From positions 6,222 through 70,221 of the forward strand of contig CAZHVK010000004.1 in assembly GCA_964535955.1 (NCBI GenBank): a stretch of 64,000 bases of DNA, given 5' to 3'. The stretch comes from an uncultured Methanosarcinales archaeon. GTDB lineage: Archaea; Nanobdellota; Nanobdellia; Woesearchaeales; CAXGTL01. Position numbers and translations under genes: made by a program. The notes under the pieces were generated by a model. That model did no database searches and was not told where the DNA came from. It saw nothing but the letters and a program-made list of their open reading frames with translations. Below, in pieces: positions 21,291-56,707 of this stretch. The first letter of the stretch is position 1; each line of letters opens with the position of its first letter.

Positions 21291-23081
21291 CTACCTTGTA
21301 GGTCTATAACTTCTAGGTGATCTTGCTTTTGGTGCTTTATCAGCTTTAATCAATCTTTCTAAACCATTAAAAGCAGCATTTATTTCAGCAACATCTCCAC
21401 CATTTTGTTTATACTTTGACAAAGTATTAACTAATTTATCAATTATTTTGTTTTTGTCTTCTCTATCTTGCTTGTACAAATCCATCAATGTCTTTATTTG
21501 TTGTTCATATGCTCTTTGCATATCTAATTGTGATTGTGGATTATATTTACAACCAGGTTGAACAGCTCCTTGTTCAGGTGCTTGTGGTTCTTCAGGTTGT
21601 GCTTCTGGTTTTGCTTCAGGCTTTGCTTCTGGTGTCATTTCTGGTGTCACTTTTTGTCCATCTACATATACATTATTTACAATTGTTAATTGACTATCTT
21701 CAGCATTACCTTCGCCTGCTCCAACATCTTGGCCACTTCTTTCATAATCACTGATATCTTCAATTGTTTCTTTTACTTCTTGCCTTGAGTCTTCTATCTT
21801 GATTATTTCTTCTTCATGATAACCTAATGCCTCATCAACTTCTTCAAAATATACATCTACAACTTTTTCCACTGTTTTACCTTTTCCTGCTACAGAATCA
21901 TGGTCTTTACCAGTTTCTTTATAACAGCTAGTTGCACAAGATGATAAACCTATTAATGAACCTAGTGCTAATATTAATGCACTTATTTTAATACCTTTAC
22001 AAAATCTAGGATAACGATTTCTGATGTATTTAATTATTCCACCATCATCTCCATTACCACCATTACCATCTTTAATTGGTATTGGCATTTTCTTTTTATC
22101 AGTATATTTCTGTGAATCTTTAGCTTTTTCAACATCTACTGGCATTTTATTAGGCATTGGTGTTTTAACTTTACCTTTTACATCTTCTTTACTATGAGTA
22201 TCACTACCATCCCCACGAATTAATCCATATTCTTTTGCTTTTTGTTTCCAAAAAGAATCACCTGAAGCACCTACTACTTTTTCTATGTATGTTTTTTCTT
22301 TATTATCTTTATCTCTTTTCTTTATTGTTTCTTTAATCTCATCTACTTGTTCTTTGACATCTGGAAATACTTCTGTATCTTTATCTTTTTCTTCTGTCTT
22401 TCCATCTGTTTTTGCTTTTTTAGTACCTTTCATATCAATATTAGCAATTTTCTCTGATAATTCTTCACGTTGAGCTTTTCTTGTGCCAGTGTCTTTTTTA
22501 TCTTTTATATCTTTTTCTTTTTGTTGTTTCTTTCTTTCTTTTCTTTCTTTATCTCTTTGTTTTTGTTTTTCTTCTCTTTGTTTTCTTTCTTTTTCTCTTT
22601 TCTTCTTATTTTCTTCCCTTTTCTTCTTTTCTTGCTCTCTTTTCTTTTTATCTTCTTCAGCTTTCTTCTTATCTTGATCTTGTTTTGCTTTTTCAGCTTC
22701 TTTAGTTTTTGTCTTTTCAGTTTCTTTAGTATCTTTACCTTTTGCTTTTACTTGTTTTTCTGTTTCTAACTTTGCTTTATAGAAATCAACAAAATCACCT
22801 GGTTCTTGTTTTGCTCCTAACAAACCTGTTACATATTTATGATATTCATCATCTAATGATTCTCTAAGATCAAAATATTCTTCAAATGAACATTTTTTAA
22901 TTTCAGAACGATATTTGTTCCATTCTTGAACTCTATCTTCATATTTTTCATCAACTGCATTGTGGTCAATTGGATTTTGGTCAGCAATTTCTTCAAGTTT
23001 TTTTTGATTTTTAACATCTTCAAGTTTTTCTATTAATTCTTCTCCTTGTGATTTAGATTTTGTTTGATTGTTTTCAGTCAT
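21291..23081 (-). CDS. Membrane-anchored KE-rich/PEAK-repeat protein, paralog of the collagen-like protein
   Basis: Lys/Glu low-complexity block (KKREQEKKKREENKKKREKERKQREEKQKQRDKERKERKK), a TM helix (ALILALGSLIGL), then SCATSCYKETGKDH...DSRQEVKETIEDISDYER shared with 23222..24412, and PEAKPEAKPEAQPE repeats. Confidence 0.6.
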   Translation of the reverse strand: MTENNQTKSKSQGEELIEKLEDVKNQKKLEEIADQNPIDHNAVDEKYEDRVQEWNKYRSEIKKCSFEEYFDLRESLDDEYHKYVTGLLGAKQEPGDFVDFYKAKLETEKQVKAKGKDTKETEKTKTKEAEKAKQDQDKKKAEEDKKKREQEKKKREENKKKREKERKQREEKQKQRDKERKERKKQQKEKDIKDKKDTGTRKAQREELSEKIANIDMKGTKKAKTDGKTEEKDKDTEVFPDVKEQVDEIKETIKKRDKDNKEKTYIEKVVGASGDSFWKQKAKEYGLIRGDGSDTHSKEDVKGKVKTPMPNKMPVDVEKAKDSQKYTDKKKMPIPIKDGNGGNGDDGGIIKYIRNRYPRFCKGIKISALILALGSLIGLSSCATSCYKETGKDHDSVAGKGKTVEKVVDVYFEEVDEALGYHEEEIIKIEDSRQEVKETIEDISDYERSGQDVGAGEGNAEDSQLTIVNNVYVDGQKVTPEMTPEAKPEAKPEAQPEEPQAPEQGAVQPGCKYNPQSQLDMQRAYEQQIKTLMDLYKQDREDKNKIIDKLVNTLSKYKQNGGDVAEINAAFNGLERLIKADKAPKARSPRSYRPTR

Positions 23082-23221: not shown

Positions 23222-24412
23222 TTATTCAGTATAATGGTCTGTTTTTACTTTTTTACCATCTATATATATATTATTGATTACTTTGAGTCTATTTTGTTTA
23301 TTGCCTTTTTTACCTGGTTTTCCATTACCTTTGACTGGTTTGTCATCATCATCTCTTTCATAATCAGCAATATCTTCAATTGTTTTCCTTACTCCTTGTC
23401 TTGAATCACCAATCTTATCTATTTGGTCATTGTGAAAATCTAATGCACCATCTACTGATCTAAAGTATTTCTTAACTTTTCTTTCAACTTTTTTACCTTC
23501 TCTTGCTACATAAGCATGATCTTTGCTAGTTTCTTTATAACAACTGGTTGCATAACATGAAAGTCCTACTAATAATGCTAATGCTAGTAATCCTGTTCCT
23601 ATTTTTGCTGTTTTATACAAACAAGGATATTGATTTTTGATGTATGCAAAGAGTCCTTTGTTATCTTTATCTTTTTTATCATCATCATTAGGTCTATATG
23701 GTCCAATTGGTCCTGGTAGTCCTTGTTCTCCTTGAATTCCTTGTGGCCCTTGTATTCCTTTTTCTCCAGGCTCTCCGTCCTTACCATCTACTCCAGACTT
23801 ACCATCTACTCCTGGCTTTCCATCTACCCCATGCTTTCCATCTACTCCTTGTTTTCCATCTACCCCTGGCTTTCCATCTTCTCCATCTTTTCCATCTACT
23901 CCATGCTTTCCATCTATTCCAGGTTCCCCTTTTTCTCCAGGTACCCCAGGATTTCCATCTACTCCTGGCTTTCCATCTATTCCAGGCTCTCCATCTTTTC
24001 CATCTGCCCCAGACTTTCCATCTATTCCAGGCTCTCCGTCCTTTCCATCTACTCCAGGTTTTCCATCTTTTCCTTTTTTACCTCTTGGTCCTGTTTTTCC
24101 AGGCTCCCCTTGTTCTCCTTGTGCTCCTGGATCTCCTTTAATACCAATTCTATTAATACCATCTTTATACAAACAAACAACAATTGATCCTAATGAATCA
24201 CGAAGTAATTTTCTATCTTGTAATTTTTTTTCTTTAATAACTTCATTAGCAAAATATTCAGGAACATGTGCTCTTTGAAAGATATCTACTTCATCTTGAG
24301 TAAATAAACCACTATACTTTGGTTGTTTTGTTTGTTTTTTAGAATCATCAATCCATTTATCTACTTTATCATCTAATGCTATTTTAAAATATTCTATTGT
24401 ATCTTCAGTCAT
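23222..24412 (-). CDS. Collagen-like triple-helix repeat membrane protein
   Basis: 50 uninterrupted Gly-X-Y triplets (GIKGDPGAQGEQGEPGKTGPRGKKGKDGKPGVDG...GLPGPIGPY), then a TM helix (LLALALLVGL) and a C-terminal SCYATSCYKETSKDH...DSRQGVRKTIEDIADYER module. Confidence 0.65.
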   Translation of the reverse strand: MTEDTIEYFKIALDDKVDKWIDDSKKQTKQPKYSGLFTQDEVDIFQRAHVPEYFANEVIKEKKLQDRKLLRDSLGSIVVCLYKDGINRIGIKGDPGAQGEQGEPGKTGPRGKKGKDGKPGVDGKDGEPGIDGKSGADGKDGEPGIDGKPGVDGNPGVPGEKGEPGIDGKHGVDGKDGEDGKPGVDGKQGVDGKHGVDGKPGVDGKSGVDGKDGEPGEKGIQGPQGIQGEQGLPGPIGPYRPNDDDKKDKDNKGLFAYIKNQYPCLYKTAKIGTGLLALALLVGLSCYATSCYKETSKDHAYVAREGKKVERKVKKYFRSVDGALDFHNDQIDKIGDSRQGVRKTIEDIADYERDDDDKPVKGNGKPGKKGNKQNRLKVINNIYIDGKKVKTDHYTE

Positions 24413-26609: not shown

Positions 26610-27671
26610 ATGGCAAAAATTATAGCAATTGACGAAAAAATAATAAATAATCAATTTAATAGACAAATTGCTGAATGTATTGGATTATGGTTAGCAGAAG
26701 GAGATAATAAATGTACGAATGAAATTACATTCACTAATAATTGTTTTGATCTTATTAAACATTTTCATAATACAATAACTAAATTATTTAAAGAATATAA
26801 TTTCAATATAAGAATTTATGTTTATTCAAAAAATAAACTTAAAATAGACCTTCCTATAAAAGATTGCATAACTAAATATTATTCTGATAAACGGGCTAAA
26901 AAACCTTATTTTATTTGGAGAATTTGTTCTGTTAAACTGAACAGGAAATGGAAAAATATTGTTGAAGCATATAAGCCAAATTCAGAATTTTATCCTGAAA
27001 TCTTAAGAGGGTTTTTTGCTGGTGAGGGGAATATCAAGATAGGAAGCCACAATAGTAGAGTAATTAGGATAGCACAAAAAAACAGAGTAAAGTTCATAGA
27101 AAATATATTAGATTCCTTAAAAATAGAATACAAGTTTAAAAAAAATGAGAGAAGTTATTGCATATATCATAAGGATAATTGGGATATTTTTTCTAGATTT
27201 GGATTAGCAGATTTACATCCTATAAAAAAGAACAAATTCTATACTAATTATAATTTCAAAGAAGAACATTATAAACATAATTATCTTAAAAAAGAAGTAT
27301 TTAAAGAATTGGTTAGACCTCATACTACAATTGAATTATCTAAAAAATTTAATCGTTCACCAGCAAGAATCTGTGATATTGTAATAGAGCTTAAAAAAGA
27401 AGGTCTTATCACAAATTTTGGAGTCAAAAGTACTATGTATTGGATAAGAAATGATAAAAATTCTATAATTATATCACAAATTAAAGAGAAATATATAAAT
27501 ATAGTAAAAGAAAAACCATTATTAACATCTGAAATTGCTAAAACATTAAAAGTTGATTGGAAAAATGCATTCAAAAGATTGAAAGAACTTGAGAAATTAA
27601 AATTAGTACAACAAATTAACAAAAATGAATGGGGATATATTAAAACAAGTAAAAGGGTTATCGTAATATGA
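26610..27671 (+). CDS. Free-standing double-motif LAGLIDADG homing-endonuclease-like protein with two C-terminal winged-helix domains
   Basis: Two LAGLIDADG motifs: ECIGLWLAEGD and LRGFFAGEGNIK. C-terminal wHTH-like segments (TIELSKKFNRSPARICDIVIELKKEGLI; TSEIAKTLKVDWKNAFKRLKELEKLKLV). Stop overlaps the rnhB start (ATATGA). Confidence 0.65.
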   Translation: MAKIIAIDEKIINNQFNRQIAECIGLWLAEGDNKCTNEITFTNNCFDLIKHFHNTITKLFKEYNFNIRIYVYSKNKLKIDLPIKDCITKYYSDKRAKKPYFIWRICSVKLNRKWKNIVEAYKPNSEFYPEILRGFFAGEGNIKIGSHNSRVIRIAQKNRVKFIENILDSLKIEYKFKKNERSYCIYHKDNWDIFSRFGLADLHPIKKNKFYTNYNFKEEHYKHNYLKKEVFKELVRPHTTIELSKKFNRSPARICDIVIELKKEGLITNFGVKSTMYWIRNDKNSIIISQIKEKYINIVKEKPLLTSEIAKTLKVDWKNAFKRLKELEKLKLVQQINKNEWGYIKTSKRVIVI

Positions 27672-28324
27672 GCAAGGTCATAGCCATAGATGAGGCTGGT
27701 AAGGGTCCAGTAATAGGTCCACTTGTAATGACAGGTGTGCTTGTTGACGAAAAAGATTTAGACAAACTAAAAGTAATTGGTGTAAAAGATTCTAAACTAA
27801 TTCTTAAACATAAAAGAAAAGCAATGCTTGAACAAATTAAAGAAATAATCATAGATTATAAAACAATAATTGTGACAGCTGAAGAACTAAACCAAAGCAT
27901 GAAAAAGATTAATCTAAATCAGATAGAAGCAATAAAAGCAGCAGAAATCATTAATCATTTTAATAAAATCGATGTAGATACTGCAATCATCGACTGCCCG
28001 TCACCAAACATTGGTGCATACAAATATTATATACAAAAACATTTAGAAAGAGAAATAGACTTAAGACCAGAACACAAAGCAGATCTTAATTATGTATCTG
28101 TAGGAGCAGCTTCAATTATTGCAAAAACAACTAGAGATGATGAAATAGAAAAGCTAAAAAAAGAAGTAGGAACAGACTTTGGCTCTGGTTACACATCAGA
28201 CCCAAAAACACAAGCTTTTCTCAAAGATAATTTTGATAAACATCCAAACTTATTCAGAAAGCGCTGGTCAACATGGAAAAACCTAGACATGGCAAAGAAA
28301 CAAAGTAAGTTAGGAGATTTCTAA
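27668..28324 (+). CDS. rnhB: Ribonuclease HII
   Basis: VIAIDEAGKGPVIGPLV N-terminal catalytic motif, DSK, DCPSP motifs typical of RNase HII. Confidence 0.85.
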   Translation: MSKVIAIDEAGKGPVIGPLVMTGVLVDEKDLDKLKVIGVKDSKLILKHKRKAMLEQIKEIIIDYKTIIVTAEELNQSMKKINLNQIEAIKAAEIINHFNKIDVDTAIIDCPSPNIGAYKYYIQKHLEREIDLRPEHKADLNYVSVGAASIIAKTTRDDEIEKLKKEVGTDFGSGYTSDPKTQAFLKDNFDKHPNLFRKRWSTWKNLDMAKKQSKLGDF

Positions 28325-29379: not shown

Positions 29380-30039
29380 TTAATCCTTAGCATCCCATTC
29401 CTTATAAAATTCTTTTAAAAACAACTGCATAAACCTTTGCCTGCGCAAAGCAATCTTTTTACCTGTTTTAGTATTCATCATATCTTTTAATAATAACAAT
29501 TTTTCATAAAAATGATTAATAGTGGGATCCATGTCTTTTCTATATTCATGAGACTTTCTGCCTAATTTTGGTTTAATATCAGGATCATACATTATCTTTC
29601 CTTTGCTTCCACCATAAGCAAATGTTCTTCCCACACCAATAGCTCCAATTGCATCCAATCTGTCAGCATCCTGTATAATCATGAATTCTTTTGATTTTTT
29701 TACTTTTTTTTTATCTAATGATTTTGAAAAAGACATATTAGCAATTATATGCATGATATGTTTTTTATCATTCTCTTTAATTTTCATCTTATCTAACCAA
29801 GAACCAATCATTCTAGGTGCAACTCTTACATCACCCTTATAAAACTTGGGATCACCAACATCATGCAACAAAGCAGCCATATCAATCACAAATCTATCAA
29901 CATTTTTCTCAGAATTAGCAATGTTATGAGCAAGTTTCCAAACACGATAAATATGCCACCAATCATGACCACAACTCTTATCTTTAAATTCTTTTTTAAC
30001 AAAACCAACAGTTTTTTTTATAACCCCTTTTTTATTCAT
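29380..30039 (-). CDS. HD-domain phosphohydrolase
   Basis: H...HD (HDWWHIYRVWKLAH, ALLHDVGD) and DADRLDAIGAIG motifs of the HD superfamily. Confidence 0.75.
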   Translation of the reverse strand: MNKKGVIKKTVGFVKKEFKDKSCGHDWWHIYRVWKLAHNIANSEKNVDRFVIDMAALLHDVGDPKFYKGDVRVAPRMIGSWLDKMKIKENDKKHIMHIIANMSFSKSLDKKKVKKSKEFMIIQDADRLDAIGAIGVGRTFAYGGSKGKIMYDPDIKPKLGRKSHEYRKDMDPTINHFYEKLLLLKDMMNTKTGKKIALRRQRFMQLFLKEFYKEWDAKD

Positions 30040-30043
30040 ATAT

Positions 30044-30706
30044 CTAACCTCCTATATTAAACAAAAAAATCTGCAAAACAAGCAATACAAATCCAAACCC
30101 AGCCATCAATCCATAATACAGTTTGTTCCAATGCAATATCTTGATACCATCAAAATTACCAAATGGAATTAGGTTGAATAAGCCAAGCCAAGTGTTAATC
30201 ATAAAGCCATACATAAATATTTTAGCAATAAATTCATTAGGAATAAAAGCAGCAGACCATATTGAAAATCCCAGAAACACAACAGCCATAACCAGGTTAG
30301 TCAAAGGCCCTGCTAATGAAATCTTTCCATTAACCCTATTATTTACATAACCAGAGATAATCACAGCACCAGGTGCTGCAAACACGATTCCAACAAAATA
30401 TGCAAGCACTAAAGCCATCCACAGCATGCTTCTATTTGCTCTAAATTCAGCAAAACAACCAAACCTTTGTGCAACAATTTTATGCCCGAGCTCATGAAAC
30501 ACAAACCCAGTACCCACTGCCACCAAAGATATTACAAGATTCTGTAAAAATTCCATAGAAAATATAGCACGAGTACCAAGTATAAATGCAAATGCAATAG
30601 ATATAAAGATCCAGGCTCTGATCAAATCATTTATCTCTTTCTCAGATGAAGTATAACCAAATATCTTATACTTTTTTCCAGCATATCTAAATGGGTCTTG
30701 GTGCAT
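30044..30706 (-). CDS. Membrane-embedded zinc metalloprotease, M50 (site-2 protease) family
   Basis: HExxH within a TM helix (FVFHELGHKIVAQRFG) and a second conserved TM motif NLIPFGNFDG (the LDG motif of S2P). Confidence 0.65.
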   Translation of the reverse strand: MHQDPFRYAGKKYKIFGYTSSEKEINDLIRAWIFISIAFAFILGTRAIFSMEFLQNLVISLVAVGTGFVFHELGHKIVAQRFGCFAEFRANRSMLWMALVLAYFVGIVFAAPGAVIISGYVNNRVNGKISLAGPLTNLVMAVVFLGFSIWSAAFIPNEFIAKIFMYGFMINTWLGLFNLIPFGNFDGIKILHWNKLYYGLMAGFGFVLLVLQIFLFNIGG

Positions 30707-30754: not shown

Positions 30755-32101
30755 TCACAAATTAATCTCTTTTTTATGTATCAAAAACAAAGCACAATAT
30801 ACTCTAGCCCAAAAATATGCTCTTGTTATTTTACAGTATTTATGATAATCATCTAAAGCTCCCCAATCTAATTTTTCTTGGGTTGTTTTATCATATTGAA
30901 GATGATAAAAATCATCTATCAAACATCCAATTTCCTTTGGTTGCCAACCATTTTCCATTAGATTTTCTGCAAATTTTATTAATACTTTTGGTTGTAAAGC
31001 TCTTGGACAAGGATATTCAATAAAGTTTTTAGTTTTATCACTTAACTTAGGATCTCTTTGTGCTCTGATAAAGGCTTGCCAATTAGCTAACCTTGGCATT
31101 TCATCAAAATCTTTATGATATCTGTATAAATCAGAAGCTTCATACTCATCCACAAGACTGTTTATTGAGTCATCATCTGCTTCAGGAATTTCTCCTGAAA
31201 AATTTTCAGCATGTTGAACAGCCATTTCTTTGTTCCACATACAATTAAGCAGATAATCCATATCTTCAATAAAAATATCCTTTTTACCTTTACCAAAATA
31301 TACTCCCATTATAATGTCTTGCAATGATTTTGCTGATCCTTGAATATATGTTCTTCTTTTTTTATGTAAACTAAATGGAGCTCTCATTATCCTCATATAA
31401 CCAGGATCACCGCAATCAGTTATATCTTCATTAACACACTTTTCTTCTGAATCACTAATTGTTATTGGTATCTCTTCGTATTTTTCAGCATGTACTAATG
31501 ATTTGAATGCAATATATTCTTTTAACCTACCCATGCCAGAAAAAACCAAACCAGCATCTACACCTGGTGCAGGATTTCTTTTTATATCATGAGGATCAGT
31601 AAAATCATATTTATCTGCTAATTCATCTTCAAGACAACCAATACTAGCAAGCCTGTTAAAAGCCTCAGTGCCTCTTCTTACTCTGAATAAAATATGCCAG
31701 CCTGAAGGAGTTAAATCAATCATGTGCGGAACTCCATGCTTTTTTAATAATTTAGATTCATATGATATTACAGGGAACAAATGATTATTAAAAAAATGTA
31801 ATTGTGAACCCACATTATAATAAAGATAATATGGATCTGCAAGAAATATCTCAGCATCTTTTGCAAATAATGCACTCTCTCCACCATAGCCAAATATTGG
31901 TATGTAAATTTCAAGATTTTGTTCTTGTGTTAAACTAGACAAGTTTTCTATTGATTCTGCTGTTACAAGTAAACCATTAGGATCCCAACCTCTAGCAATT
32001 AATTCTGTACCAGAACCAAGAGCCCAATTACATTTACCAAAAGAATTTCTTAATTTTGGAAAAATAGCTTCCTGATATTCTCTATCATCCACATCTATCA
32101 C
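30755..32101 (-). CDS. Archaeo-eukaryotic primase (AEP) superfamily protein, divergent paralog of 32140..33570
   Basis: Motif II-like PSGWHILFRV and motif III MRAPFSLHKKRRT (compare eukaryotic PRIM1 SPFCVHPKTG); the DxD motif I is not obvious. Confidence 0.5.
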   Translation of the reverse strand: MIDVDDREYQEAIFPKLRNSFGKCNWALGSGTELIARGWDPNGLLVTAESIENLSSLTQEQNLEIYIPIFGYGGESALFAKDAEIFLADPYYLYYNVGSQLHFFNNHLFPVISYESKLLKKHGVPHMIDLTPSGWHILFRVRRGTEAFNRLASIGCLEDELADKYDFTDPHDIKRNPAPGVDAGLVFSGMGRLKEYIAFKSLVHAEKYEEIPITISDSEEKCVNEDITDCGDPGYMRIMRAPFSLHKKRRTYIQGSAKSLQDIIMGVYFGKGKKDIFIEDMDYLLNCMWNKEMAVQHAENFSGEIPEADDDSINSLVDEYEASDLYRYHKDFDEMPRLANWQAFIRAQRDPKLSDKTKNFIEYPCPRALQPKVLIKFAENLMENGWQPKEIGCLIDDFYHLQYDKTTQEKLDWGALDDYHKYCKITRAYFWARVYCALFLIHKKEINL

Positions 32102-32139
32102 CCTTTAAAATTTATTTTTATTTAATTTTCAGCCAATAA

Positions 32140-33570
32140 TCAATATCTTAACTTAGTAAATGAAGGATTACTCATACCTACATAATATTGAACAAAGAAT
32201 GCCCTTACCCAACCAGCAATTCTCTTAACAGGACTTGATTTATAACCACCTAATATCTTAAGATGATCTAATTTTCCTGCTAAATACGCAACAATATCTG
32301 CAGGATGAACATCATGAGACAAAAACTTATCAGTTACAGCTTTTATCACATTAGGATTAAGTTGATCACCTGTGCATGTATTAAGTTTTGCTTCTAAATC
32401 AGGATGCAGCCTAATATGTTTAAGTTCATTATATTTTTTTGAAAACATTTGTTTATAATTACTAAACTCAAACATCTTCATTCCTTGATCAAATATTTGA
32501 TGAGCCTCATGAACATCACTTCCTAAATATGCTCTTACTAAATTTTCAACTCCCCATGACATTACAGGAAGATAAGTTCTAATTGAACCAGCATAATTAG
32601 CAGCATCATGATAATTATTTCTTCTTAATCTAAACAAATCATCTAAACTAATCTCATTACCATTACAAGGAGTAAATCTAGGAATAGCAATATTATAAGG
32701 TGTTTTTGCAGCTGTTTCATGTCCGACTTTCCATGGACTTGTCATATGTTTCTGGTGCAATGAAAATGGCAATCTTATATCTCTCATAAACATTGGATCA
32801 GCAAATGCACTTAGATCAACAGATATTACTACACCACCTTTTGCCCATTGATCACCTATAACAACAGGAAGTCTATTACCATATTTTCTTGCTCTTCGCA
32901 TTGCTTGTATTGACATAAACTCAATTAATTTTGACCAACCATCATTTGCCCATGCTTCATCATCAGTAACAATTCTTCTTCTTCTTGAACCATGTCTTCT
33001 ATATTGATTCTTTATTCTTTCTTCATGACTAACAAAACCTAAGCTTTGTAATAATTCATATGCATTTGAATTTGCATCATCTTTAGGAACTCTAAACCCA
33101 TAATGATAACCTTGTCCAGTTGCAATAACTAATGGAGAAAAACCATAATCTCTATAAACACTCATAAGTGCTTGATGAAATGGCTCCAAGTCCCAGAATA
33201 AACCAACCATATCTTTATAATTTGCTCCAGGATCATTATGATTAACTTTCTCAACATCTAATAAACATATAAGATTATCCTCATCATGCACTGATCTAAA
33301 AACATCAGATTTTTTATCAAGAATTTGGCCTAATTGCCATGGTTCTTTGCATGTAAAACCTTGTTTTACCCTTAACCCATATTCAACCAAATACATAGCA
33401 GTCATTAATTTTCCTAATTCTCTAAGATTTCTAGAATCTTTTAAAGGACCATAACCTTGTGGATATCCAATATCAGATCTTTCAATAATCCATGCAGGAA
33501 CACCACAATATTCTAACATTCTTTTTATAACTTCAGGATGTCTGTAATAATCATGTGCATTATTTGCCAT
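32140..33570 (-). CDS. AEP-family primase small-subunit-like protein (PriS-like)
   Basis: Motif I LLDVEKV (DxE), motif II TGQGYHYGFRV (SGxGxH), motif III IRLPFSLHQKHMT (R.PFS.H.K). Confidence 0.6.
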   Translation of the reverse strand: MANNAHDYYRHPEVIKRMLEYCGVPAWIIERSDIGYPQGYGPLKDSRNLRELGKLMTAMYLVEYGLRVKQGFTCKEPWQLGQILDKKSDVFRSVHDEDNLICLLDVEKVNHNDPGANYKDMVGLFWDLEPFHQALMSVYRDYGFSPLVIATGQGYHYGFRVPKDDANSNAYELLQSLGFVSHEERIKNQYRRHGSRRRRIVTDDEAWANDGWSKLIEFMSIQAMRRARKYGNRLPVVIGDQWAKGGVVISVDLSAFADPMFMRDIRLPFSLHQKHMTSPWKVGHETAAKTPYNIAIPRFTPCNGNEISLDDLFRLRRNNYHDAANYAGSIRTYLPVMSWGVENLVRAYLGSDVHEAHQIFDQGMKMFEFSNYKQMFSKKYNELKHIRLHPDLEAKLNTCTGDQLNPNVIKAVTDKFLSHDVHPADIVAYLAGKLDHLKILGGYKSSPVKRIAGWVRAFFVQYYVGMSNPSFTKLRY

Positions 33571-33805
33571 ATTTTTTACCTCATTAAAAATCTCTATAAA
33601 AATCTATAAAAACCATTTTTAAAAAATCACTAACTTATATATAAGCATTTATATTCTTTATATAATGACTAAAATGATGTAGAAAACTATATAAATCAGC
33701 TAAACATTTATATATATAATAACCTTCAAATATATAATAGTATAATAATCAATAAATTACTAATAAATAATCAATAAATCATTACAATATAATCAAACAC
33801 AAAAA

Positions 33806-35359
33806 ATGGCAGCAACATTATCTACTTATGGATTTAAAGAAGTTGATAAAGATCCTGATAGTCCTGATTTTCCAAAACCAGATAAAAAGTTTAAACTTAT
33901 CTGGGAAAGATTTTTTGCATCAATCGAAGAACCTTATTTCTTTGTTTTATCAACAATGAGGGATGCACTTGGGTGGACAGAGGTTGACAAAATTAAAGAT
34001 ATATTCTCAGCATCAGAAACATCTGCTTTCTATGGTTCAGTTGGTTCAAGATTATCTATTGCTCAAGATAGAGTAATGACATATTCTAAATCAATTGGAA
34101 TGTTTCTTACAGAATTGTTTAAGATGGCTCGGGAGCTAAGAATAATAGAACAAAGAATAGATTTAAATGAAGCCACTAATAGAGGTCAGAGATCAGCAGA
34201 CAAAGCATTAAAAGGTTTATGGGTAGATCTTGTGGATGGTGGTCCCAAAAATCCTAGTTCAATTATTTCTTTATCAAGAGAAGCTGGTTTTAGTGTATTA
34301 ATGGACTTATTTTTTGGAACATATATTCAATCACCAAAGGATCAAAAAGAAATAGGTAGTAAGGTTGATGAAGCTGTTAATAGGTTAAAATTTAATCAAA
34401 CAATGAAATCAGTATTAGCTAGAAAATTAGTAACATATCTTACTTGGAAACAAAGAACATTTGAAGAATTAAAAACTAGAAAACTATTCATGCAAAAACA
34501 TATAAGACAATATTATTTAACAATAAGAATGTATACTACTTGGTTAAGACCATACTTGACTCATGTAAAGAGGTTAGGTATGGATGAATCAAAATTATCT
34601 TCTCCAGACTTGGTTGCAGGTTTTGAAACTTCTATGACAGAACTTGAACTAATGTTTAAAAAACCAACAAAAAAAGGAAATTATTACTCAATTATAAATG
34701 TTCATTTCCTATTTAAAACACAGCCAAAAATGGATTTTCATCAAGATGGTTACCAACACAGAGGACCAATACATGTTGGGAAAGTTTATATCACTTTTAG
34801 AGGATATGTTTGGGATAAAAAACAAATAGAAGAATATAAAAAATTTAGAGCTGAAGAGGATTTTGAATTACTAGGAGCAATAAATGATGAAATAAAAGCT
34901 GCATTAGATAATTTAAGTGATGATATTAAAGATTTTATTTTTAATTTAGGAGAAAAAATATACAAAGAAATTGATGTGTTAATGCATGAGTTAAATATAG
35001 ATTATAATGAGGTTTTGCATTGGGAAAAACTCTACAAAAAAGCAAAAGAAGAAGAGGAATTTAAAGGGACTTTGAAAGAATATATTGAGAAAAACAAAAA
35101 ACATAAAAAAGACAAGATTAAATTGGGAAGTATTTTCGACCCTTTTAAACATCTTGTTAATGGTTTTTCAGAGATGATAACAGGAAAAGAAATATTTAGA
35201 TTTAAAGAAGAAGGTGACAAGAAAAAAGATACCAAGCCTACAAAAGCAGAAGCATGGCAGATGGAAAAAGAGAAAGAAGATGCAAAAAAAGCGATGTTAG
35301 GTCCTTTATGGAATATATTTAAAGTTTTTAAAAAAGCTCATGGTATGTTAGCATGGTAA
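33806..35359 (+). CDS. Hypothetical protein (517 aa), helical/coiled-coil rich
   Basis: Intact ORF divergent from the primase pair; overlaps the next ORF by 7 nt, suggesting an operon. Confidence 0.5.
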   Translation: MAATLSTYGFKEVDKDPDSPDFPKPDKKFKLIWERFFASIEEPYFFVLSTMRDALGWTEVDKIKDIFSASETSAFYGSVGSRLSIAQDRVMTYSKSIGMFLTELFKMARELRIIEQRIDLNEATNRGQRSADKALKGLWVDLVDGGPKNPSSIISLSREAGFSVLMDLFFGTYIQSPKDQKEIGSKVDEAVNRLKFNQTMKSVLARKLVTYLTWKQRTFEELKTRKLFMQKHIRQYYLTIRMYTTWLRPYLTHVKRLGMDESKLSSPDLVAGFETSMTELELMFKKPTKKGNYYSIINVHFLFKTQPKMDFHQDGYQHRGPIHVGKVYITFRGYVWDKKQIEEYKKFRAEEDFELLGAINDEIKAALDNLSDDIKDFIFNLGEKIYKEIDVLMHELNIDYNEVLHWEKLYKKAKEEEEFKGTLKEYIEKNKKHKKDKIKLGSIFDPFKHLVNGFSEMITGKEIFRFKEEGDKKKDTKPTKAEAWQMEKEKEDAKKAMLGPLWNIFKVFKKAHGMLAW

Positions 35360-35928
35360 TTAAAAAAGATATACTTAAAGACATTAATAAATTGTCCCCA
35401 GAAGAAAGACTAAAAAGATTAAAACAATTAGAAGAAGAAATAAAAAAAGAAGAAAAGATAACAGAGGGAATAATTGTTAAAGAAAGGGAAGTTCTAAAAG
35501 AAAAACAGATAACTGATGAAAGACTGGTACAAAATAGAAGAAAAAGAACAAAAGAAAAAAAAGATAAAGAATCAAAAACAATTACTTCTAAAAGCGAAAG
35601 CATCAAAGTAATAGAACCAAAAGTAACAGTATTAGAAGATGTTGTAGAACAAGAAAAAATATCACAACAACAAGAAATAAATATGGAAGAAGTTCAATAT
35701 CATGCAAAATTTATTACAGAAGTAGACCAGGCACTTGATAGAATGGAATACATGTCTAAGGAAAAGCTTGATCAATATTCAACACAAGCAAGAGACATAT
35801 ATGATAAATTAAATGATGCATATGAACACGCAGTAGGTTGGATGAGGGATGACATAAAAGCAGAAAAAGAACGTATGAAAAACATGTTTAAGTGGTGGAA
35901 AGATGAAGGGGATAAGTATTCTTCTTAG
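35353..35928 (+). CDS. KE-rich coiled-coil protein (191 aa)
   Basis: Charged heptad-like composition; co-oriented and overlapping with the upstream ORF. Confidence 0.45.
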   Translation: MVIKKDILKDINKLSPEERLKRLKQLEEEIKKEEKITEGIIVKEREVLKEKQITDERLVQNRRKRTKEKKDKESKTITSKSESIKVIEPKVTVLEDVVEQEKISQQQEINMEEVQYHAKFITEVDQALDRMEYMSKEKLDQYSTQARDIYDKLNDAYEHAVGWMRDDIKAEKERMKNMFKWWKDEGDKYSS

Positions 35929-38274: not shown

Positions 38275-38844
38275 ATGAGAAGAAAAAAAACACAAAAATT
38301 CAATCTATTAAAAGAACTTAAAACATCATTCTCTATAATCACTTTAAAAAAAAAAACAATAAACCAAGTCGCAGACAATGGCTCAACATGGTTGGCAGTG
38401 ATTTTATTTGGTTTTTGGAGTTTAGTAGCAGGCATTATTATCCAAGATTATATGTCAGCAATTGGTTGGTTTGTTGAAGCAATATTCTTTACTTGGATCA
38501 TCACATTATTATATTATTTAGGTGGAATGTTATTCAAATCAAAAGCAGAATTCATGGAAATCTATAAACCATGGGGCTATGCACAGCTTGTTGTTGGAAT
38601 CAGTTTCTTAATCAATAAACTCTTTACCACTAATCTTGCATTACTAATATCTTTATTACTCGAAGTATGGTGCATAATCATTGCATACAAGATAATCAAA
38701 ACAGAATCCAGATTAAAGCCATGGAAAGCATTAATAATAGCATTAATACCAATCATAATCTTAATAATAATTGTAATGACAAACTCTTTGACTTTATTAA
38801 GTATTATTTTAGATTCAGGTTTGGTGAATGGGTTGTTGTTTTAA
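38275..38844 (+). CDS. Integral membrane protein (5 TM), hypothetical
   Basis: Hydrophobic helices; RBS AAGAGGTAA upstream. Confidence 0.5.
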   Translation: MRRKKTQKFNLLKELKTSFSIITLKKKTINQVADNGSTWLAVILFGFWSLVAGIIIQDYMSAIGWFVEAIFFTWIITLLYYLGGMLFKSKAEFMEIYKPWGYAQLVVGISFLINKLFTTNLALLISLLLEVWCIIIAYKIIKTESRLKPWKALIIALIPIIILIIIVMTNSLTLLSIILDSGLVNGLLF

Positions 38845-39527
38845 TAAAACTTAACCTTTCCTTCAAACAACACACCTTTCCTTAACTCAACAGGTCTCCA
38901 TTTATCAATAATCAATTTAGCATCTAACCAATTAGCAAGTTCTTTTGGATTACCAATAGTAGCACTGAGTCCAATAATCTGCACATTAGCCAACAGCCTT
39001 CGTAATATTGTAATCAGGATTTCAAGTGTTGGACCACGACCAATATCATTCAACAAATGTATTTCATCAATAACAACAACTCCAACATGTTTAAGCCAAT
39101 GCGCATGATGACGAATCAGGCTATCTAATTTCTCAGAAGTACATATTATTAAATCATAATTCGCAAGATGAGTTTCTTTTTTATCTAAATCACCTATTGA
39201 TAATGCAATATTACATAAATGAGAATATCTTTTCTTAAAATCTTTATACTTTTCTAATGCAAGAGATTTCAATGGAACTATATAAATACATTTTCCCTTG
39301 CTTTCAAGTATGGATTTTATCCCACACATCTCTGCAATTAGAGTTTTACCAGATGCAGTTGGTGTACACACAAGCAAATTCTTACCATCTAACAAACCAT
39401 TTTTTATTGCTTTTTTCTGGCAAGGCCTAAGCTCAGTAATATTACACTTATCCAAAACCTTGTACAACTCAGCAGGAATATGATCTTTGATAGATTTTAG
39501 TTTCATACATCTGGGAAAAGAAAACAA
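38841..39527 (-). pseudogene. Truncated Ski2/Hel308-type helicase: only the first RecA-like domain (228 aa)
   Basis: Motif I CTPTASGKT, Ia, motif II VVVIDEIHLL, motif III LSATIGN, then the ORF ends (..KVKFY*). No helicase domain 2 on this strand before the opposing gene at 38275..38844. Confidence 0.5.
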
Positions 39528-45595: not shown

Positions 45596-48076
45596 TTATT
45601 TTCCTCTACTATTCAGATCATCAATAAGGTCTACTTCATCTGGAAATTGATCTATATGTGTGTGTTTAGTAGAATCACCACCTAATAATGCGTCAAGTGG
45701 ATCTTGATCATCAATACCAAACAATTGATTCAATTTAGCTTCTTCATCTTGTGTATCTTGTTTTTTGTCTTGTTGTTCTTTTTTATCCAAACCAAAATAA
45801 TGATCTATCTTTTCTTGTGATGGTATATAATCAATTTCTTCTCCAGGCTCTCCTCCAGAAGCTTGAGCCAATTCTTCATTTATTTGATCAATTTCATCCG
45901 GTGTGTATTCTTCTTGTTTTGTTTCTGGCAAATACATTTCAGCTTCTTGTTCTAAGAGTTTTGTCATGCTTTGTTCTTTTTTATCTTCTATTTTCTTATC
46001 TCTTTGTCTTTGTTCAATTAGTTCTTGTGATAATGATTTATCTTTTATTATTGTTGCTGATTGTCTTTTCTTTATTATTAGACCACCCCTTCTCTTGTTT
46101 TCTCTTTCCTCTTCTTCATGCACTGCTTTACTTGACTCAGCAAACTGTTGAAGCAAACTTTGAAAATCATCATCACCATCATCCTCTTCTTCTCTTGCTA
46201 AAAGATTCCCAAAAGGAGAAGAACCTGGACTAAGACAAATAGAATGCAGATCATCTCCATAATCTTCATCATCACAAAAAACACTACTCAAAAAAATACC
46301 ACAAGGATCCATTTTTCCTGGTTCTGTTAATTGATCATCATCTAAACCAGACCCTCCAGACAACATATTTAAAAATTCATCTTCTTCATCAAGAGTAGGA
46401 AATTGTATTCCCTGCGGTTCATCATCACCACCATCATTCCCTTTAACCAATTTTTTATACTGATGCAGATCTTTTCTTAATGCATCCATTTTGTTCATTA
46501 TCTTCCTACTTAAGTGATTTTTTGCATTAATTTTCTTTAATTCACTTAATTCTTTACTCATCTTGTCTACATAATCAAACAAATTACTTTCTTTTGAAGT
46601 TACTCTAAAGCCAAAATTTTCATCAATAACAACTAATTCTCCTCTGTACAAAAGATTGTTTCCACACTTCACTAGAATACTTTGTCCAGCAAGTTGTTCT
46701 AATTTGAATTCAGAACCAATCTCTAGTTGTGAAGCTTGTTTTGAAGTCATATAAGTATGTCCAATTATTGCTCTTAATTCTGTACAAACTGAATTAATCC
46801 TGTCAACTGGTCTTAATTTATGGTCTCTGTCTCTAAAATTGACTATTTTTACTTTAAAATATTCATCTTCAACACCAAGCCTGCATTTACCAAGATACAG
46901 ACCACCTGCATAAATATCAAACTCTTCACCACACAATGTATCTAGTTCAATTACTGCTCCTGTACTAATCTCTTGAAGATCTTGCACAGGTCTTTCACTT
47001 CTTCCTGCTTCTATTTCTATTTTTAATGCTTGGCTACCAAATATTTCTTTATTTATCTTTGTCTTGGTCTCTCTACCATAAAACTTCTTTAAAAAAGGAT
47101 GTATTGGAAAACTCACATTTACAATTCCTTCTCTACAATCTGCTTTTTTAAAATATTCATTTGTTTTTTGTTTAAAGTATTCAATTTTGTCACTAAAAGT
47201 TAATTGTTTTCCTTCTTCATCGCTTTGCCTAATTCTATGTATACCATCACCTAATTTTTCTAAGAATATTCTTTCAATATGGGCAATAGTATCATAATCT
47301 TCCTTGATTTTATCCCAATTTTCTCTAAACACTTTTACAAACTGACAATTCAGCTCATATTCATCATCATCAAAACCAATTCCAACAAGAACCTTATCAA
47401 TATCATCATAATCATCAATCCCTTCTGCAGTTAATTTATCAAAATAATCAATACCAGAAGAATAATTAGTATGACACTGAAACTCATATGTCAATAATAA
47501 GACCATATCATTAGGATTATGTATCACCATCTTAGGATCTGTAAATAATTCAGACATTGTTACTTTTTCTTCTAATTTTATATTCTTAACCAATGTTTCT
47601 AAAAATGTTTTACATGTTTCTGATAATTTAGAATGCATATTTTCTAATCTTTTTGCACTTGTTTTTTCATCAAATGCATATAATGGTGAAAATGTATTTA
47701 CTAATCCTGCATTGAATTCTAAATAACCAGCATATTCTCCAATCTTAAATTCTTGTAGATAAGTAGGATTATTGATACTTCTTATAAATTCTTCATGTGT
47801 GATCTGATCAACACTTACTATGTCTAATCTAGAGACATAGACATTACTATGCTTATTTCTAAATTCTTTTAACATCTCTTTTTCAAAATATTCTCTACTC
47901 TTATTTGATAAATAATCAGATTGTCTTTTTGTAAAAAAATCAGGTCTTTTATAATCATAGATCTTTATTTTTCTATGTTTTACATCTTCTTTCATTTCTT
48001 CATCAGTCTTAAGATCACCTGTCTCAATTGCACTTAACAAAGCATCTATCTCATCTTGACATAGAATTTCAACCAT
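45596..48076 (-). CDS. FliM/FliY-like switch protein: CheY-binding N-terminal peptide plus two FliN/SpoA domains and a long acidic tail
   Basis: N-terminus MVEILCQDEIDALLSAIETGD matches the bacterial FliM/FliY LSQ(D/E)EIDALL peptide. SpoA domains: AVIELDTLCGEEFDIYAGGLYLGKCRLG and LEQLAGQSILVKCGNNLLYRGELVVIDENFGFRVT (compare T. maritima FliN ARGEVVVVDENFGVRIT). Confidence 0.7.
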   Translation of the reverse strand: MVEILCQDEIDALLSAIETGDLKTDEEMKEDVKHRKIKIYDYKRPDFFTKRQSDYLSNKSREYFEKEMLKEFRNKHSNVYVSRLDIVSVDQITHEEFIRSINNPTYLQEFKIGEYAGYLEFNAGLVNTFSPLYAFDEKTSAKRLENMHSKLSETCKTFLETLVKNIKLEEKVTMSELFTDPKMVIHNPNDMVLLLTYEFQCHTNYSSGIDYFDKLTAEGIDDYDDIDKVLVGIGFDDDEYELNCQFVKVFRENWDKIKEDYDTIAHIERIFLEKLGDGIHRIRQSDEEGKQLTFSDKIEYFKQKTNEYFKKADCREGIVNVSFPIHPFLKKFYGRETKTKINKEIFGSQALKIEIEAGRSERPVQDLQEISTGAVIELDTLCGEEFDIYAGGLYLGKCRLGVEDEYFKVKIVNFRDRDHKLRPVDRINSVCTELRAIIGHTYMTSKQASQLEIGSEFKLEQLAGQSILVKCGNNLLYRGELVVIDENFGFRVTSKESNLFDYVDKMSKELSELKKINAKNHLSRKIMNKMDALRKDLHQYKKLVKGNDGGDDEPQGIQFPTLDEEDEFLNMLSGGSGLDDDQLTEPGKMDPCGIFLSSVFCDDEDYGDDLHSICLSPGSSPFGNLLAREEEDDGDDDFQSLLQQFAESSKAVHEEEERENKRRGGLIIKKRQSATIIKDKSLSQELIEQRQRDKKIEDKKEQSMTKLLEQEAEMYLPETKQEEYTPDEIDQINEELAQASGGEPGEEIDYIPSQEKIDHYFGLDKKEQQDKKQDTQDEEAKLNQLFGIDDQDPLDALLGGDSTKHTHIDQFPDEVDLIDDLNSRGK

Positions 48077-50527: not shown

Positions 50528-53782
<3,255 letters not shown>

Positions 53783-54481: not shown

Positions 54482-56707
54482 TTGAACACAGAATCTATTG
54501 AAATACAAAATAAGAGCAAAGCATTACGAGAATCTCATGGCTTAGAATGGCTTGCTTTTAATCTATCAAAAGAACAACCTGATATAGAACAAAGACTTTC
54601 TCATTTAGACAATGATCCTGAAATAGACATAATAGAAGCATTGGTTGACAGTGGTTATGAACCAATTCTTGAGCCATTTCCAGGAAGCGGAAAGATGAAG
54701 GATTGTTATTTTGTATATCAGGATAAGAATAAAAAGCACAAAAGAGTTGCTGTTATTGATAAACCATTAAAAGATCTTTCTGAAAAATCAAGAAAAAACA
54801 AACAAAAAGGAAATGATGTTGAAAACGAAGGAAATATCTTAAGAAATATTTCAGATCGTAAAGAACATTATATAATTGATTATTATCACAAGATAAAACT
54901 TTCAGATGGCCGTTATATGCATATTATTGAATATTTTCCAGGAGAGCCACTGTTTGATTATGTGAAGAAAAATGGTCCTTTTTCAGCAAAAGGATTTGAA
55001 CAAGTTGCAGACAAACTATTAGTAGCTATAAGTCATGTTTATAATGATGGATATCTGCATAGAGACACTCACACAGGAAATATATTAGTTAGAGAAGATA
55101 AAGATGGATTTGATGCAAGATTAATAGATTTTGGAAATGCATCTGACAAAGAATCTTTAGAACAAAGGCTTTGTAATTCAACAGCAATGTCTTCAATAAT
55201 AGCAATGCCTATTGTTGATCCTTTTACAATCAGTGGTTTAACATCAGAACCAATCAAATATTCTGTTGCATCTGAGCTTTATGCACTAGGTACTGGATTA
55301 TACTATGCTTTAACAGGCAAAGATATTTTTTATTTTAATAAACAAACAGGAGAAGCAAGAGTAAGAAAAACAGATAAAAACTTATTAGATGAAAATGGAT
55401 TGCTTGATATTGAACTTTATGAACAAGAACTTGCTAATGCTTTAGATGATTTACCCAAAGAAGTAAGAAAATATTCAGAAATCTTGTACAAATTATTAAG
55501 TCTAGAAAGCAGGATGGAGAATCCTGAGGAAAATGCTTTTTACAAATCTGTGGATAAGAACAAAGAAAGTATAAACCCTTTTGAAACTCTTATACAGGAA
55601 TATAATGAGATTAAAGATTATGATCCAGATAAATTACAACAAGTATTAGGCAGTGCAATTGATAATACTCATAAATTACAAGATCTTTTAGATCAAAGAA
55701 AACAGATAATCAATAAAGGCAAAGAAAAGAAGTCATTCTTTAGCAGAATCTTAGGTAACAAGTATGCACTTGCAGCAGGAGCAATTGGTTTGATTGGTTT
55801 GCTTGTGTTTGGAAAGGATTATTTAAAGAAAGACAGCCTAGTTTTTGACCACCCGCCTATTGCAGAGGCTTCACAAACAATAACAGAACCAGCAACAGAA
55901 CAGGAAAACAGACCTATAATAGAAGAAAAACAACCAGCACAAGAACAAGAAGAATCAACATTAGAACAAACATTAAATGATCATTATGGTTTACAAGCAA
56001 TGAAACAAAATATTAAAAAACATGCTTATGTTAATACTGGAAAAGGTGATTGGAAATATGTAGATGTTCATAATGGTCTGGATCGTTATCAAGATACAAG
56101 AAATGGCACAATAGTTTTACTTAGTAAGTTTGGTATTGTAGATGATTTTTTCTTTCCAACTGCTGTAAATGAAATAATAACAGATGCTTATATGCATTTG
56201 GATGATCATTCTTGGAGACATGTAGGTAATATACATTTTGAAGAACACGGAAATCTAAACCGTTACCAACATAAGAAAACTGGTAATGTAGTATGTATAA
56301 ATAAACTTGGAATTATAAGAGAATATTTTATTCCAACAGCTGTTGATGAAATAGAATATGATGCTTATATTGATACTAGCAAATCCAGTCATTGGAGATA
56401 TGTAGACAAAATATATTTTGAAGAACATGGCAATTTAGACCGTTATCAAGACAAGGACAATGGTTCTGTAATTTGTATAAATAAACTTGATATTGTAAAA
56501 GAATATTTTATTCCAACAGGTTTTAATGATATAAAATATGATGCTTATATGTGTCTTGACTCTAATGATTGGAAGAATTTGGGTAAGATACAAAGTGAAA
56601 AGCATGGCACTCTAAACCGTTATCAGAATAAAGAAACAGGTACAATAGTCTGTATAAATAGACTTAGCATTTTAAAGGATTTCTTTATACCAACAAGTGT
56701 GAATTAA
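54482..56707 (+). CDS. Hanks-type Ser/Thr protein kinase, TM segment, and four tandem ~58-aa C-terminal repeats
   Basis: Kinase motifs RVAVIDKP (VAIK-like), HRDTHTGNILV (catalytic loop), LIDFGNA (DFG). TM helix ALAAGAIGLIGLLVFG. Repeats contain H-x-G-x-L-x-R-Y-Q and (E/D)(Y/F)F(I/F)PT motifs. TTG start at 54482 with RBS AGGGGTG. Confidence 0.7.
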   Translation: MNTESIEIQNKSKALRESHGLEWLAFNLSKEQPDIEQRLSHLDNDPEIDIIEALVDSGYEPILEPFPGSGKMKDCYFVYQDKNKKHKRVAVIDKPLKDLSEKSRKNKQKGNDVENEGNILRNISDRKEHYIIDYYHKIKLSDGRYMHIIEYFPGEPLFDYVKKNGPFSAKGFEQVADKLLVAISHVYNDGYLHRDTHTGNILVREDKDGFDARLIDFGNASDKESLEQRLCNSTAMSSIIAMPIVDPFTISGLTSEPIKYSVASELYALGTGLYYALTGKDIFYFNKQTGEARVRKTDKNLLDENGLLDIELYEQELANALDDLPKEVRKYSEILYKLLSLESRMENPEENAFYKSVDKNKESINPFETLIQEYNEIKDYDPDKLQQVLGSAIDNTHKLQDLLDQRKQIINKGKEKKSFFSRILGNKYALAAGAIGLIGLLVFGKDYLKKDSLVFDHPPIAEASQTITEPATEQENRPIIEEKQPAQEQEESTLEQTLNDHYGLQAMKQNIKKHAYVNTGKGDWKYVDVHNGLDRYQDTRNGTIVLLSKFGIVDDFFFPTAVNEIITDAYMHLDDHSWRHVGNIHFEEHGNLNRYQHKKTGNVVCINKLGIIREYFIPTAVDEIEYDAYIDTSKSSHWRYVDKIYFEEHGNLDRYQDKDNGSVICINKLDIVKEYFIPTGFNDIKYDAYMCLDSNDWKNLGKIQSEKHGTLNRYQNKETGTIVCINRLSILKDFFIPTSVN

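Follow-up and report, generated by a model that had tools for sequence, protein, structure and literature searches.

Archaeo-eukaryotic primases (AEPs) are known not only as priming enzymes but also from non-homologous end joining, gap filling in base excision repair (BER), repriming and CRISPR-associated synthesis. Three motifs define the superfamily, namely motif I (hhhDhD/E, metal ligands on a beta-strand), motif II (sxH) and motif III (hD/E) (PMC5862659). The described enzymes that give the best, though remote, structural matches to the proteins reported here are the polymerase domain of LigD (LigD-Pol) and Prim-PolC, both stand-alone and of repair type. The mycobacterial Prim-PolC fills BER gaps of 1-3 nt after end-processing by endonuclease IV (EndoIV) and prefers rNTPs (PMC5663958). 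In this paper we add a further family, starting from two tandem genes, A and B, in a 64-kb stretch of archaeal DNA (contig CAZHVK010000004.1; the whole analysed stretch is called the window in the following). In an open reading frame (ORF) scan gene A (32140-33570, minus strand) encodes 476 aa from an ATG, and gene B (30755-32101, minus strand) 448 aa from a GTG. Both ORFs had been described in a first-pass annotation of the sequence as tandem, highly divergent AEP paralogs, and this part of it holds. All peptides which it quoted are present in the two proteins, and they represent the most conserved segments of the family.

Protein A consists of an N-terminal helical segment, an AEP-fold core (residues ~60-300) and an all-helical C-terminal part (~305-476). 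Its motif I (33250-33264, minus strand) reads L-L-D105-V-E107 (CLLD105VE107), follows the pattern hhhDhE and lies on a predicted strand (residues 99-110); D105 is invariant in the family alignment and E107 is conserved in at least 90% of the sequences. Motif II (33103-33120, minus strand; T151-G-Q-G-Y-H156) follows the pattern sxH and is invariant or near-invariant. Motif III together with the next segment (32749-32817, minus strand) comprises V-D252, with D252 at the end of strand 247-252, and then R263..R266-L-P-F-S270-L-H272-Q-K274, in which R263, R266, S270 and K274 are invariant, as is D252. In protein B the corresponding motif I (31850-31858, minus strand) is D82-A-E84 within FAKD82-A-E84-IF. 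These two acidic residues align with D105 and E107 of A and are shared by at least 90% of the B-clade sequences, so that the acidic motif I is not restricted to the 476-aa protein as had been supposed. Motif II of B (31694-31711, minus strand) is T131-P-S-G134-W-H136, where T131, G134 and H136 are invariant in the B clade, and motif III with the next segment (31358-31426, minus strand) is formed by D226 and R237..R240-A-P-F-S-L-H-K-K248, where D226, R237, R240, P242, F243 and K248 are invariant in the B-clade alignment. In a set of 100 family members from 80 genomes motifs I-III are invariant or near-invariant, and across the A and B alignments the G of motif II never varies, while its H is either invariant or kept in at least 90% of the sequences. 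In both proteins motifs I, II and III agree with the published definitions (PMC5862659), and structural similarity to solved AEPs was found as well.

The AlphaFold2 model of protein A is confident (predicted local distance difference test, pLDDT, 92.7; predicted template-modelling score, pTM, 0.92) and places the motifs on the expected strands. Searching the PDB with this model in Foldseek, the leading matches are all AEPs: the LigD polymerase domain, Prim-PolC, the CRISPR-associated Prim-Pol (CAPP) and the catalytic subunits of human and yeast primase. In a library of viral structures AEP primases are the sole top matches, which are likewise remote. Because motifs I-III are invariant, the model is confident and the leading fold matches are all AEPs, A and B can both be assigned with high confidence to the AEP superfamily, as enzymes of a family outside the current libraries.

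LigD-Pol and Prim-PolC (PDB 2r9l and 5op0) are the top two Foldseek matches with a probability of 1.0, but at E ~7e-3 and 12% identity. They have the three AEP motifs and the R-x-P-x-S...K segment in common with A and B, and like these they come without a helicase. In contrast to them, the A/B family shows no detectable sequence similarity, has no ATP-dependent ligase (LigD/LigC) or Ku among the conserved neighbours within 5 kb at 80 loci, carries an extra C-terminal helical domain of ~170 aa with a four-cysteine cluster, is genetically linked or fused to its nuclease partner instead of merely interacting with it, and shows tandem paralog pairs. The highest target-normalised TM-scores of the A model (0.53-0.57) are obtained with CAPP. 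CAPP and the Prim-Pols of mobile elements (pRN1 ORF904, PolpTN2, PrimPol-PV1 supergroup) also combine an AEP core with a C-terminal helical module, but the A/B family is found off mobile elements and has no helicase, CRISPR or reverse transcriptase fusion and no detected similarity to PriCT.

The C-terminal helical domain of A corresponds to 32143-32658 (minus strand; residues 305-476). Most family members end here in a conserved PPC...NC..C..C cluster, which according to the alignment has been lost in A, B and their closest relatives. We propose that in the ancestral family form the four cysteines make up a metal or iron-sulphur (Fe-S) site. In the B-clade alignment there is no conserved cysteine, which also answers the suggestion that the 448-aa protein be checked for the 4Fe-4S cluster of PriL.

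The family is invisible to current profile libraries. Neither A nor B gave a single model match in Pfam-A or NCBIfam (both at E<=1), PHROG or PADLOC, and a sequence search of the PDB gave none either, also when a profile of 43 family sequences was used. In a word-indexed search A had 34 relatives and B had 12, each of them unnamed or 'hypothetical', and an exhaustive search with hidden Markov models (HMMs) at E<=1e-3 gave at least 600 clusters (50% identity) in uncultured bacteria and archaea, of which 274 reach E<=1e-30. Carriers are present in at least 81 of 185,579 species-representative genomes (~0.04%), a lower bound set by the search pattern. About 65 out of 80 loci are bacterial; the carriers are mostly uncultured members of the Planctomycetes-Verrucomicrobia-Chlamydiae (PVC) group, Elusimicrobia, Hydrogenedentes, Chloroflexi, Lindowbacteria, Schekmanbacteria and others, and the remaining ones are Woesearchaeota-like and Thermoplasmatota archaea. 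The AEP survey (PMC5862659) contains no family with these features, and a search of the literature for AEPs connected with a TIM barrel or with Elusimicrobia found nothing. Set apart by survey and literature from the described AEP families, A and B represent in our view a family and an architecture that are new to the superfamily, as is the conserved partner.

This partner was found by clustering the neighbouring genes within 5 kb at 80 genome loci. Only a TIM barrel of the xylose-isomerase-like type (PF01261, E=4e-34) recurs across phyla and in both domains. It is directly adjacent and co-directional at 27 of the 80 loci (24 of the downstream type, 3 of the divergent upstream type) and is also present in L006. 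In two unrelated members (P0076 and P0096) the AEP-like protein is fused to the TIM barrel, and the CBS-fused member P0153 (locus L091) is followed by a TIM barrel too. The fusion proteins lie on contigs of at most 3 kb, whose contexts add nothing besides the TIM adjacency in L091. The best match of the TIM barrel is MJ1311 (PDB 3wqo; E=5.6e-42), a solved but uncharacterised protein, which the literature found mentions only as the EndoIV homolog predicted for M. jannaschii (PMC2770678). The ketose 3-epimerases match with 1e-18 to 1e-19 and endonuclease IV with ~1e-14, and hhalign against E. coli Nfo gives a probability of 97.5%. Eight invariant residues of the TIM barrel align to the Nfo metal ligands H109, E145, D179, H182, H216, D229, H231 and E261. 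A ninth ligand (H87 to H69) was assigned by eye, its H-x-P-[YFV] context resembling H69-D-S-Y72 of Nfo, and none of the nine candidate positions varies among the 22 downstream partners and both fusions. Because the invariant residues match the metal-ligand set of Nfo, the partner looks like an EndoIV-type phosphodiesterase with a multi-metal site and not like a four-ligand epimerase. It differs from Nfo itself, as it reaches only 30 bits on the NCBIfam deoxyribonuclease IV model (cut-off 244). The likeness to Nfo and MJ1311 belongs to the partner and not to A or B.

Other neighbours were considered as well. At 12-16 bacterial loci (L053, L055, L058, L061-L063, L065, L070, L076 and others) the AEP-like gene, the TIM barrel, hisS and aspS follow each other in the same direction, and several of these loci have genes for a GT9 heptosyltransferase and GT1 upstream. 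Since hisS-aspS is a common gene pair and its position downstream probably reflects synteny, a link to tRNA was set aside; such a link, or one to the envelope, is the less probable reading. The further candidates at single-copy archaeal loci (tetratricopeptide repeat proteins, methyltransferases, hydrolases) show no pattern. A 228-aa ORF in the window (38841-39527, minus strand) comprises only the N-terminal half of a DEAD/DEAH helicase, and L015 (9161-9928) has a similar half-helicase of 255 aa, which is followed after 46 bp by the A homolog; these ORFs may be a split helicase or synteny alone.

In BLASTP A and B align over 232 aa with 25% identity (E=5e-15), and on the HMM of the other's family each of them reaches 100-260 bits. 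Judged by their sequences, the two are genuine yet distant paralogs, and the relationship is not due to chance. Protein B has the same domain order as A and the full set of catalytic motifs, with D, E, T, G, H, D, R, R, S, H and K retained at all catalytic-motif positions, as is also the case for every second copy elsewhere. This is at variance with the first-pass annotation, which had suggested a degenerate, non-catalytic copy as one of its options. Several charged residues fixed in the A-type proteins (R92, D96, R298, R316 and K433) are changed in B, and their replacements are often conserved inside the B clade. Protein B therefore looks like a specialised subunit instead of a decaying copy.

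In total, tandem paralogs are found at approximately 23 of the 80 loci. A distance tree separates the second copies into two clades, one made up of the archaeal B proteins and the other of copies from PVC-group bacteria. From these two separate clades it follows, as far as the tree can tell, that the two-paralog state has been fixed in at least two lineages, and the gene order is always the same; in the archaea A precedes B at all pair loci. One archaeal locus (L037, 8809-14384) harbours consecutively the TIM barrel, A, a second A-type copy (A') and B, where the second A-type copy is possibly frameshifted (pieces of 116 aa and 402 aa). As the only locus uniting the TIM-barrel nuclease partner with an A/B pair, it indicates that the pair and the nuclease partner are not alternatives. 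The recurrent split into two paralogs, each with an active site, is an unusual way of building an AEP enzyme.

Taking these findings together, we tentatively read A and B as a hetero-oligomeric, repair-type primase-polymerase from an undescribed cellular AEP family, an interpretation to which we give slightly less than an even chance. A role in DNA repair is more likely than one in starting chromosome replication, because elsewhere the family is paired or fused with the EndoIV-like nuclease. Prim-PolC, the second-best structural match, itself acts downstream of endonuclease IV in BER and provides a precedent for an AEP and a nuclease cooperating in repair. The ancestral form would be a single protein of ~470 aa, composed of the AEP core and the unique C-terminal helical four-cysteine domain, which works with an EndoIV-like (MJ1311-type) phosphodiesterase with a trinuclear metal site. 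The nuclease would incise or clean a damaged site and so provide a 3'-OH, and the AEP enzyme would extend this end and fill a short gap with NTPs or dNTPs, probably by two-metal chemistry at D105/E107/D252 with the nucleotide held by H156, R263, R266 and K274. In the lineage of the window the gene would have been duplicated, and B would have kept its active site while several invariant charged residues changed, which suggests its role as a specialised partner subunit. The cysteine cluster would have been lost from both copies after the duplication. The analysis itself shows the AEP fold and motifs, the paralogy, the association with the partner, the chromosomal location and the difference from PriS/PriL; that the proteins form a hetero-oligomer, that DNA is the substrate, that gaps are filled and that the steps occur in this order is what we infer from it. 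If the repair interpretation is true, the family would represent a compact excision-repair module of nuclease and polymerase common to bacteria and archaea, with the EndoIV-like partner genetically hard-wired to it and sometimes fused, and it would offer a testable function for the MJ1311 protein family.

Several points weigh against a repair enzyme of this kind. The Foldseek matches are remote (best E=6.6e-3, target-normalised TM 0.47-0.57), the heterodimer is suggested by the conserved tandem order only, and the four-cysteine site could hold Zn instead of Fe-S. There is no TIM-barrel partner inside the 64-kb window, and no cluster of ligases, Ku proteins or glycosylases is found among the conserved neighbours of the 80 loci. 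Moreover, the TIM-barrel superfamily also includes sugar epimerases and the cobamide phosphodiesterase CbiR, many bacterial loci lie amid glycosyltransferase and sugar genes, and one member carries a CBS pair; the latter two would suit an enzyme acting on small molecules.

Such an enzyme, which we consider unlikely but would take seriously, could be a metabolic nucleotidyl-transferase, in which the AEP fold adds a nucleotide to a sugar, a cofactor or another small molecule or polymerises it there, and the TIM barrel acts as a CbiR-like or sugar-phosphate phosphodiesterase or as an epimerase. The CBS-pair fusion P0153 and the similarity of the TIM barrel to ketose 3-epimerases fit this view, CbiR is the top NCBIfam match for the copy in L003, and GT1, a GT9 heptosyltransferase, PGM/PMM, DUF374 and glycerate kinase are found among the neighbours. 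However, the partner possesses the full EndoIV-type multi-metal ligand set and not the four-ligand site of an epimerase, its closest solved relative MJ1311 is listed as a predicted EndoIV homolog, and the sugar-gene neighbourhoods are limited to a few related bacterial clades and absent in archaea. We also know of no AEP with a substrate other than nucleic acid. In a related form, which seems to us quite doubtful, the family would not be a nucleic-acid polymerase and, together with an EndoIV- or CbiR-like phosphodiesterase, would make or remodel a phosphodiester-linked small molecule. Candidates are a nucleotide-sugar, a cofactor or an envelope component, with regulation by the CBS pair in some lineages. 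The family would then be the first case of an AEP taken into metabolism, with the A/B pair as its heteromeric version.

About equally doubtful is a PrimPol-like primase for repriming and damage tolerance, which would make primers de novo beyond lesions or stalled forks and whose C-terminal cysteine domain would take the initiating-NTP role of the C-terminal domain of PriL (PriL-CTD) or of PriCT. The combination of an AEP core with a C-terminal helical four-cysteine domain does recall the logic of PriS plus PriL-CTD and of PolpTN2, PriCT is a helical module related to the Fe-S domain of PriL (PMC5862659), and PriS as well as viral primases are among the fold matches. Yet the C-terminal domain itself gives no support: modelled alone (pLDDT 85) and compared with the PDB in Foldseek it has no structural neighbour (best E=3), and a relationship to PriL-CTD, PriX, PriCT or helix-bundle domains is therefore unsupported. 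In addition the cysteine cluster is missing in A and B, no helicase occurs among the conserved neighbours of the 80 loci, and the best fold matches are the gap-filling enzymes LigD-Pol and Prim-PolC.

The first-pass annotation had suggested a primase of the replicative type, either as a PriS duplicate with a degenerate partner or as PriS with a PriS-derived PriL- or PriX-like subunit. We regard such a lineage-specific replicative primase as very improbable. It is true that two tandem subunits in an archaeon and the PriS-like R-x-P-F-S-x-H-x-K segment are reminiscent of it, and that A and B share with PriS/PRIM1 and PriL the AEP fold, the R-x-P-F-S/C-x-H-x-K motif III region and the arrangement in two genes. 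Canonical priS and priL are also missing from the 64-kb window, which is, however, far too small to show their absence from the genome. On the other side, A and B have no match to PF01896, to other PriS/PriL profiles in NCBIfam or to PDB sequences. The second subunit is an AEP paralog with its own active site and no conserved cysteine, the C-terminal domain of the family has no PriL-CTD-like fold, and the ancestral partner is a nuclease and not PriL, so that a PriL/PriX-like nature of B finds no support. PriS is universal in archaea and not a bacterial core gene, and the distribution given above (~65 of 80 loci bacterial, at least 81 of 185,579 genomes, rare among archaea) does not fit this. 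With its mostly bacterial carriers and its occurrence in ~0.04% of the species genomes, the family does not qualify as a core replicative primase. The result is also a warning not to label A/B-like genes of DPANN genomes as PriS.

Least probable of all is a primase-polymerase that stems from a mobile element or a defence system, whether it still moves or has been domesticated, since against the frequent location of prokaryotic AEPs on mobile elements (PMC5862659), the patchy phyletic distribution and a LAGLIDADG gene 3 kb away stand the lack of any homolog in 50,697 phage and 72,556 plasmid records (with archaeal and bacterial queries alike), the lack of PHROG and PADLOC matches, a flat GC content and a stable housekeeping synteny (prefoldin, FtsY, RNase HII).

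This synteny, in the order prefoldin-FtsY / 517-aa protein / A / B / M50 / RNase HII, is kept in relatives of 52-84% identity. The LAGLIDADG gene, which had been taken as a hint to a mobile origin, is a separate insertion unrelated to A and B. It is an ORF of 353 aa with LAGLIDADG_3/HTH domains (26610-27671, plus strand; start MAKIIAIDE) that overlaps by 4 nt the RNase HII gene rnhB (27668-28324, plus strand) and whose start duplicates the first nine codons of rnhB (MSKVIAIDEAGKGP). In a close relative (L001/L009) rnhB is present without it. It looks as if a homing-endonuclease gene had entered rnhB at its 5' end, the start of rnhB being regenerated in the process.

A GAGGT motif is located 9 nt 5' of the ATG of gene A. 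For gene B an in-frame GTG at 32092 is the likelier start; it yields a protein of 445 aa, the same length as in public gene calls, and is preceded at 5 nt by GGGTGAT, a Shine-Dalgarno-like sequence. The AT-rich spacer between A and B (32102-32139, minus strand) measures 38 nt, or 47 nt if counted to GTG 32092, and this short distance together with the GGGTGAT fits co-transcription. Upstream of gene A an AT-rich divergent intergenic region (33571-33805), shared with a plus-strand gene for a 517-aa protein, is the presumed promoter region. The 517-aa protein and the following 191-aa protein (33806-35928, plus strand, divergent from gene A) have no match in Pfam, NCBIfam, PHROG or PADLOC. Directly 3' of gene B and co-directional lie a gene for an M50-like protein (30044-30706, minus strand) and one for an HD-domain protein (29380-30039, minus strand; both by Pfam), which are mentioned for context only and are not claimed to be members of the A/B system; the M50 gene next to A/B is conserved in close relatives only. 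As functional partners the 517-aa, 191-aa, M50, HD and 333-aa proteins were rejected, as they recur in the closest relatives only, which points to synteny.

The GC content of the region is ~30%, equal to that of the rest of the window, and does not change across A and B. The window is otherwise an ordinary archaeal chromosome with genes for aminoacyl-tRNA synthetases, exosome subunits, proteasome alpha, SBDS, prefoldin, FtsY, RNase HII and GyrB. The latter (1083 aa; 50528-53779, minus strand) harbours an intein (PF14890) between its ATPase/transducer part and the Toprim domain. An 826-aa protein (45596-48076, minus strand) combines a FliM domain with two FliN-type (FliMN_C/SpoA) flagellar-switch domains and a long acidic tail; these bacterial domains are unexpected in an otherwise archaeal window. 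Two adjacent genes (21291-23081 and 23222-24412, both minus strand) share a paralogous C-terminal module consisting of a transmembrane segment and ~100 aa (...YIKNQYP...SCYKET..DHD...IEDI.DYER), and one of them also contains a long collagen-like G-x-y repeat. Finally, the gene at 54482-56707 (plus strand) encodes a protein in which a Ser/Thr protein kinase domain precedes a transmembrane segment and approximately four C-terminal repeats of ~50 aa (...HGNLNRYQ...FIPT...).

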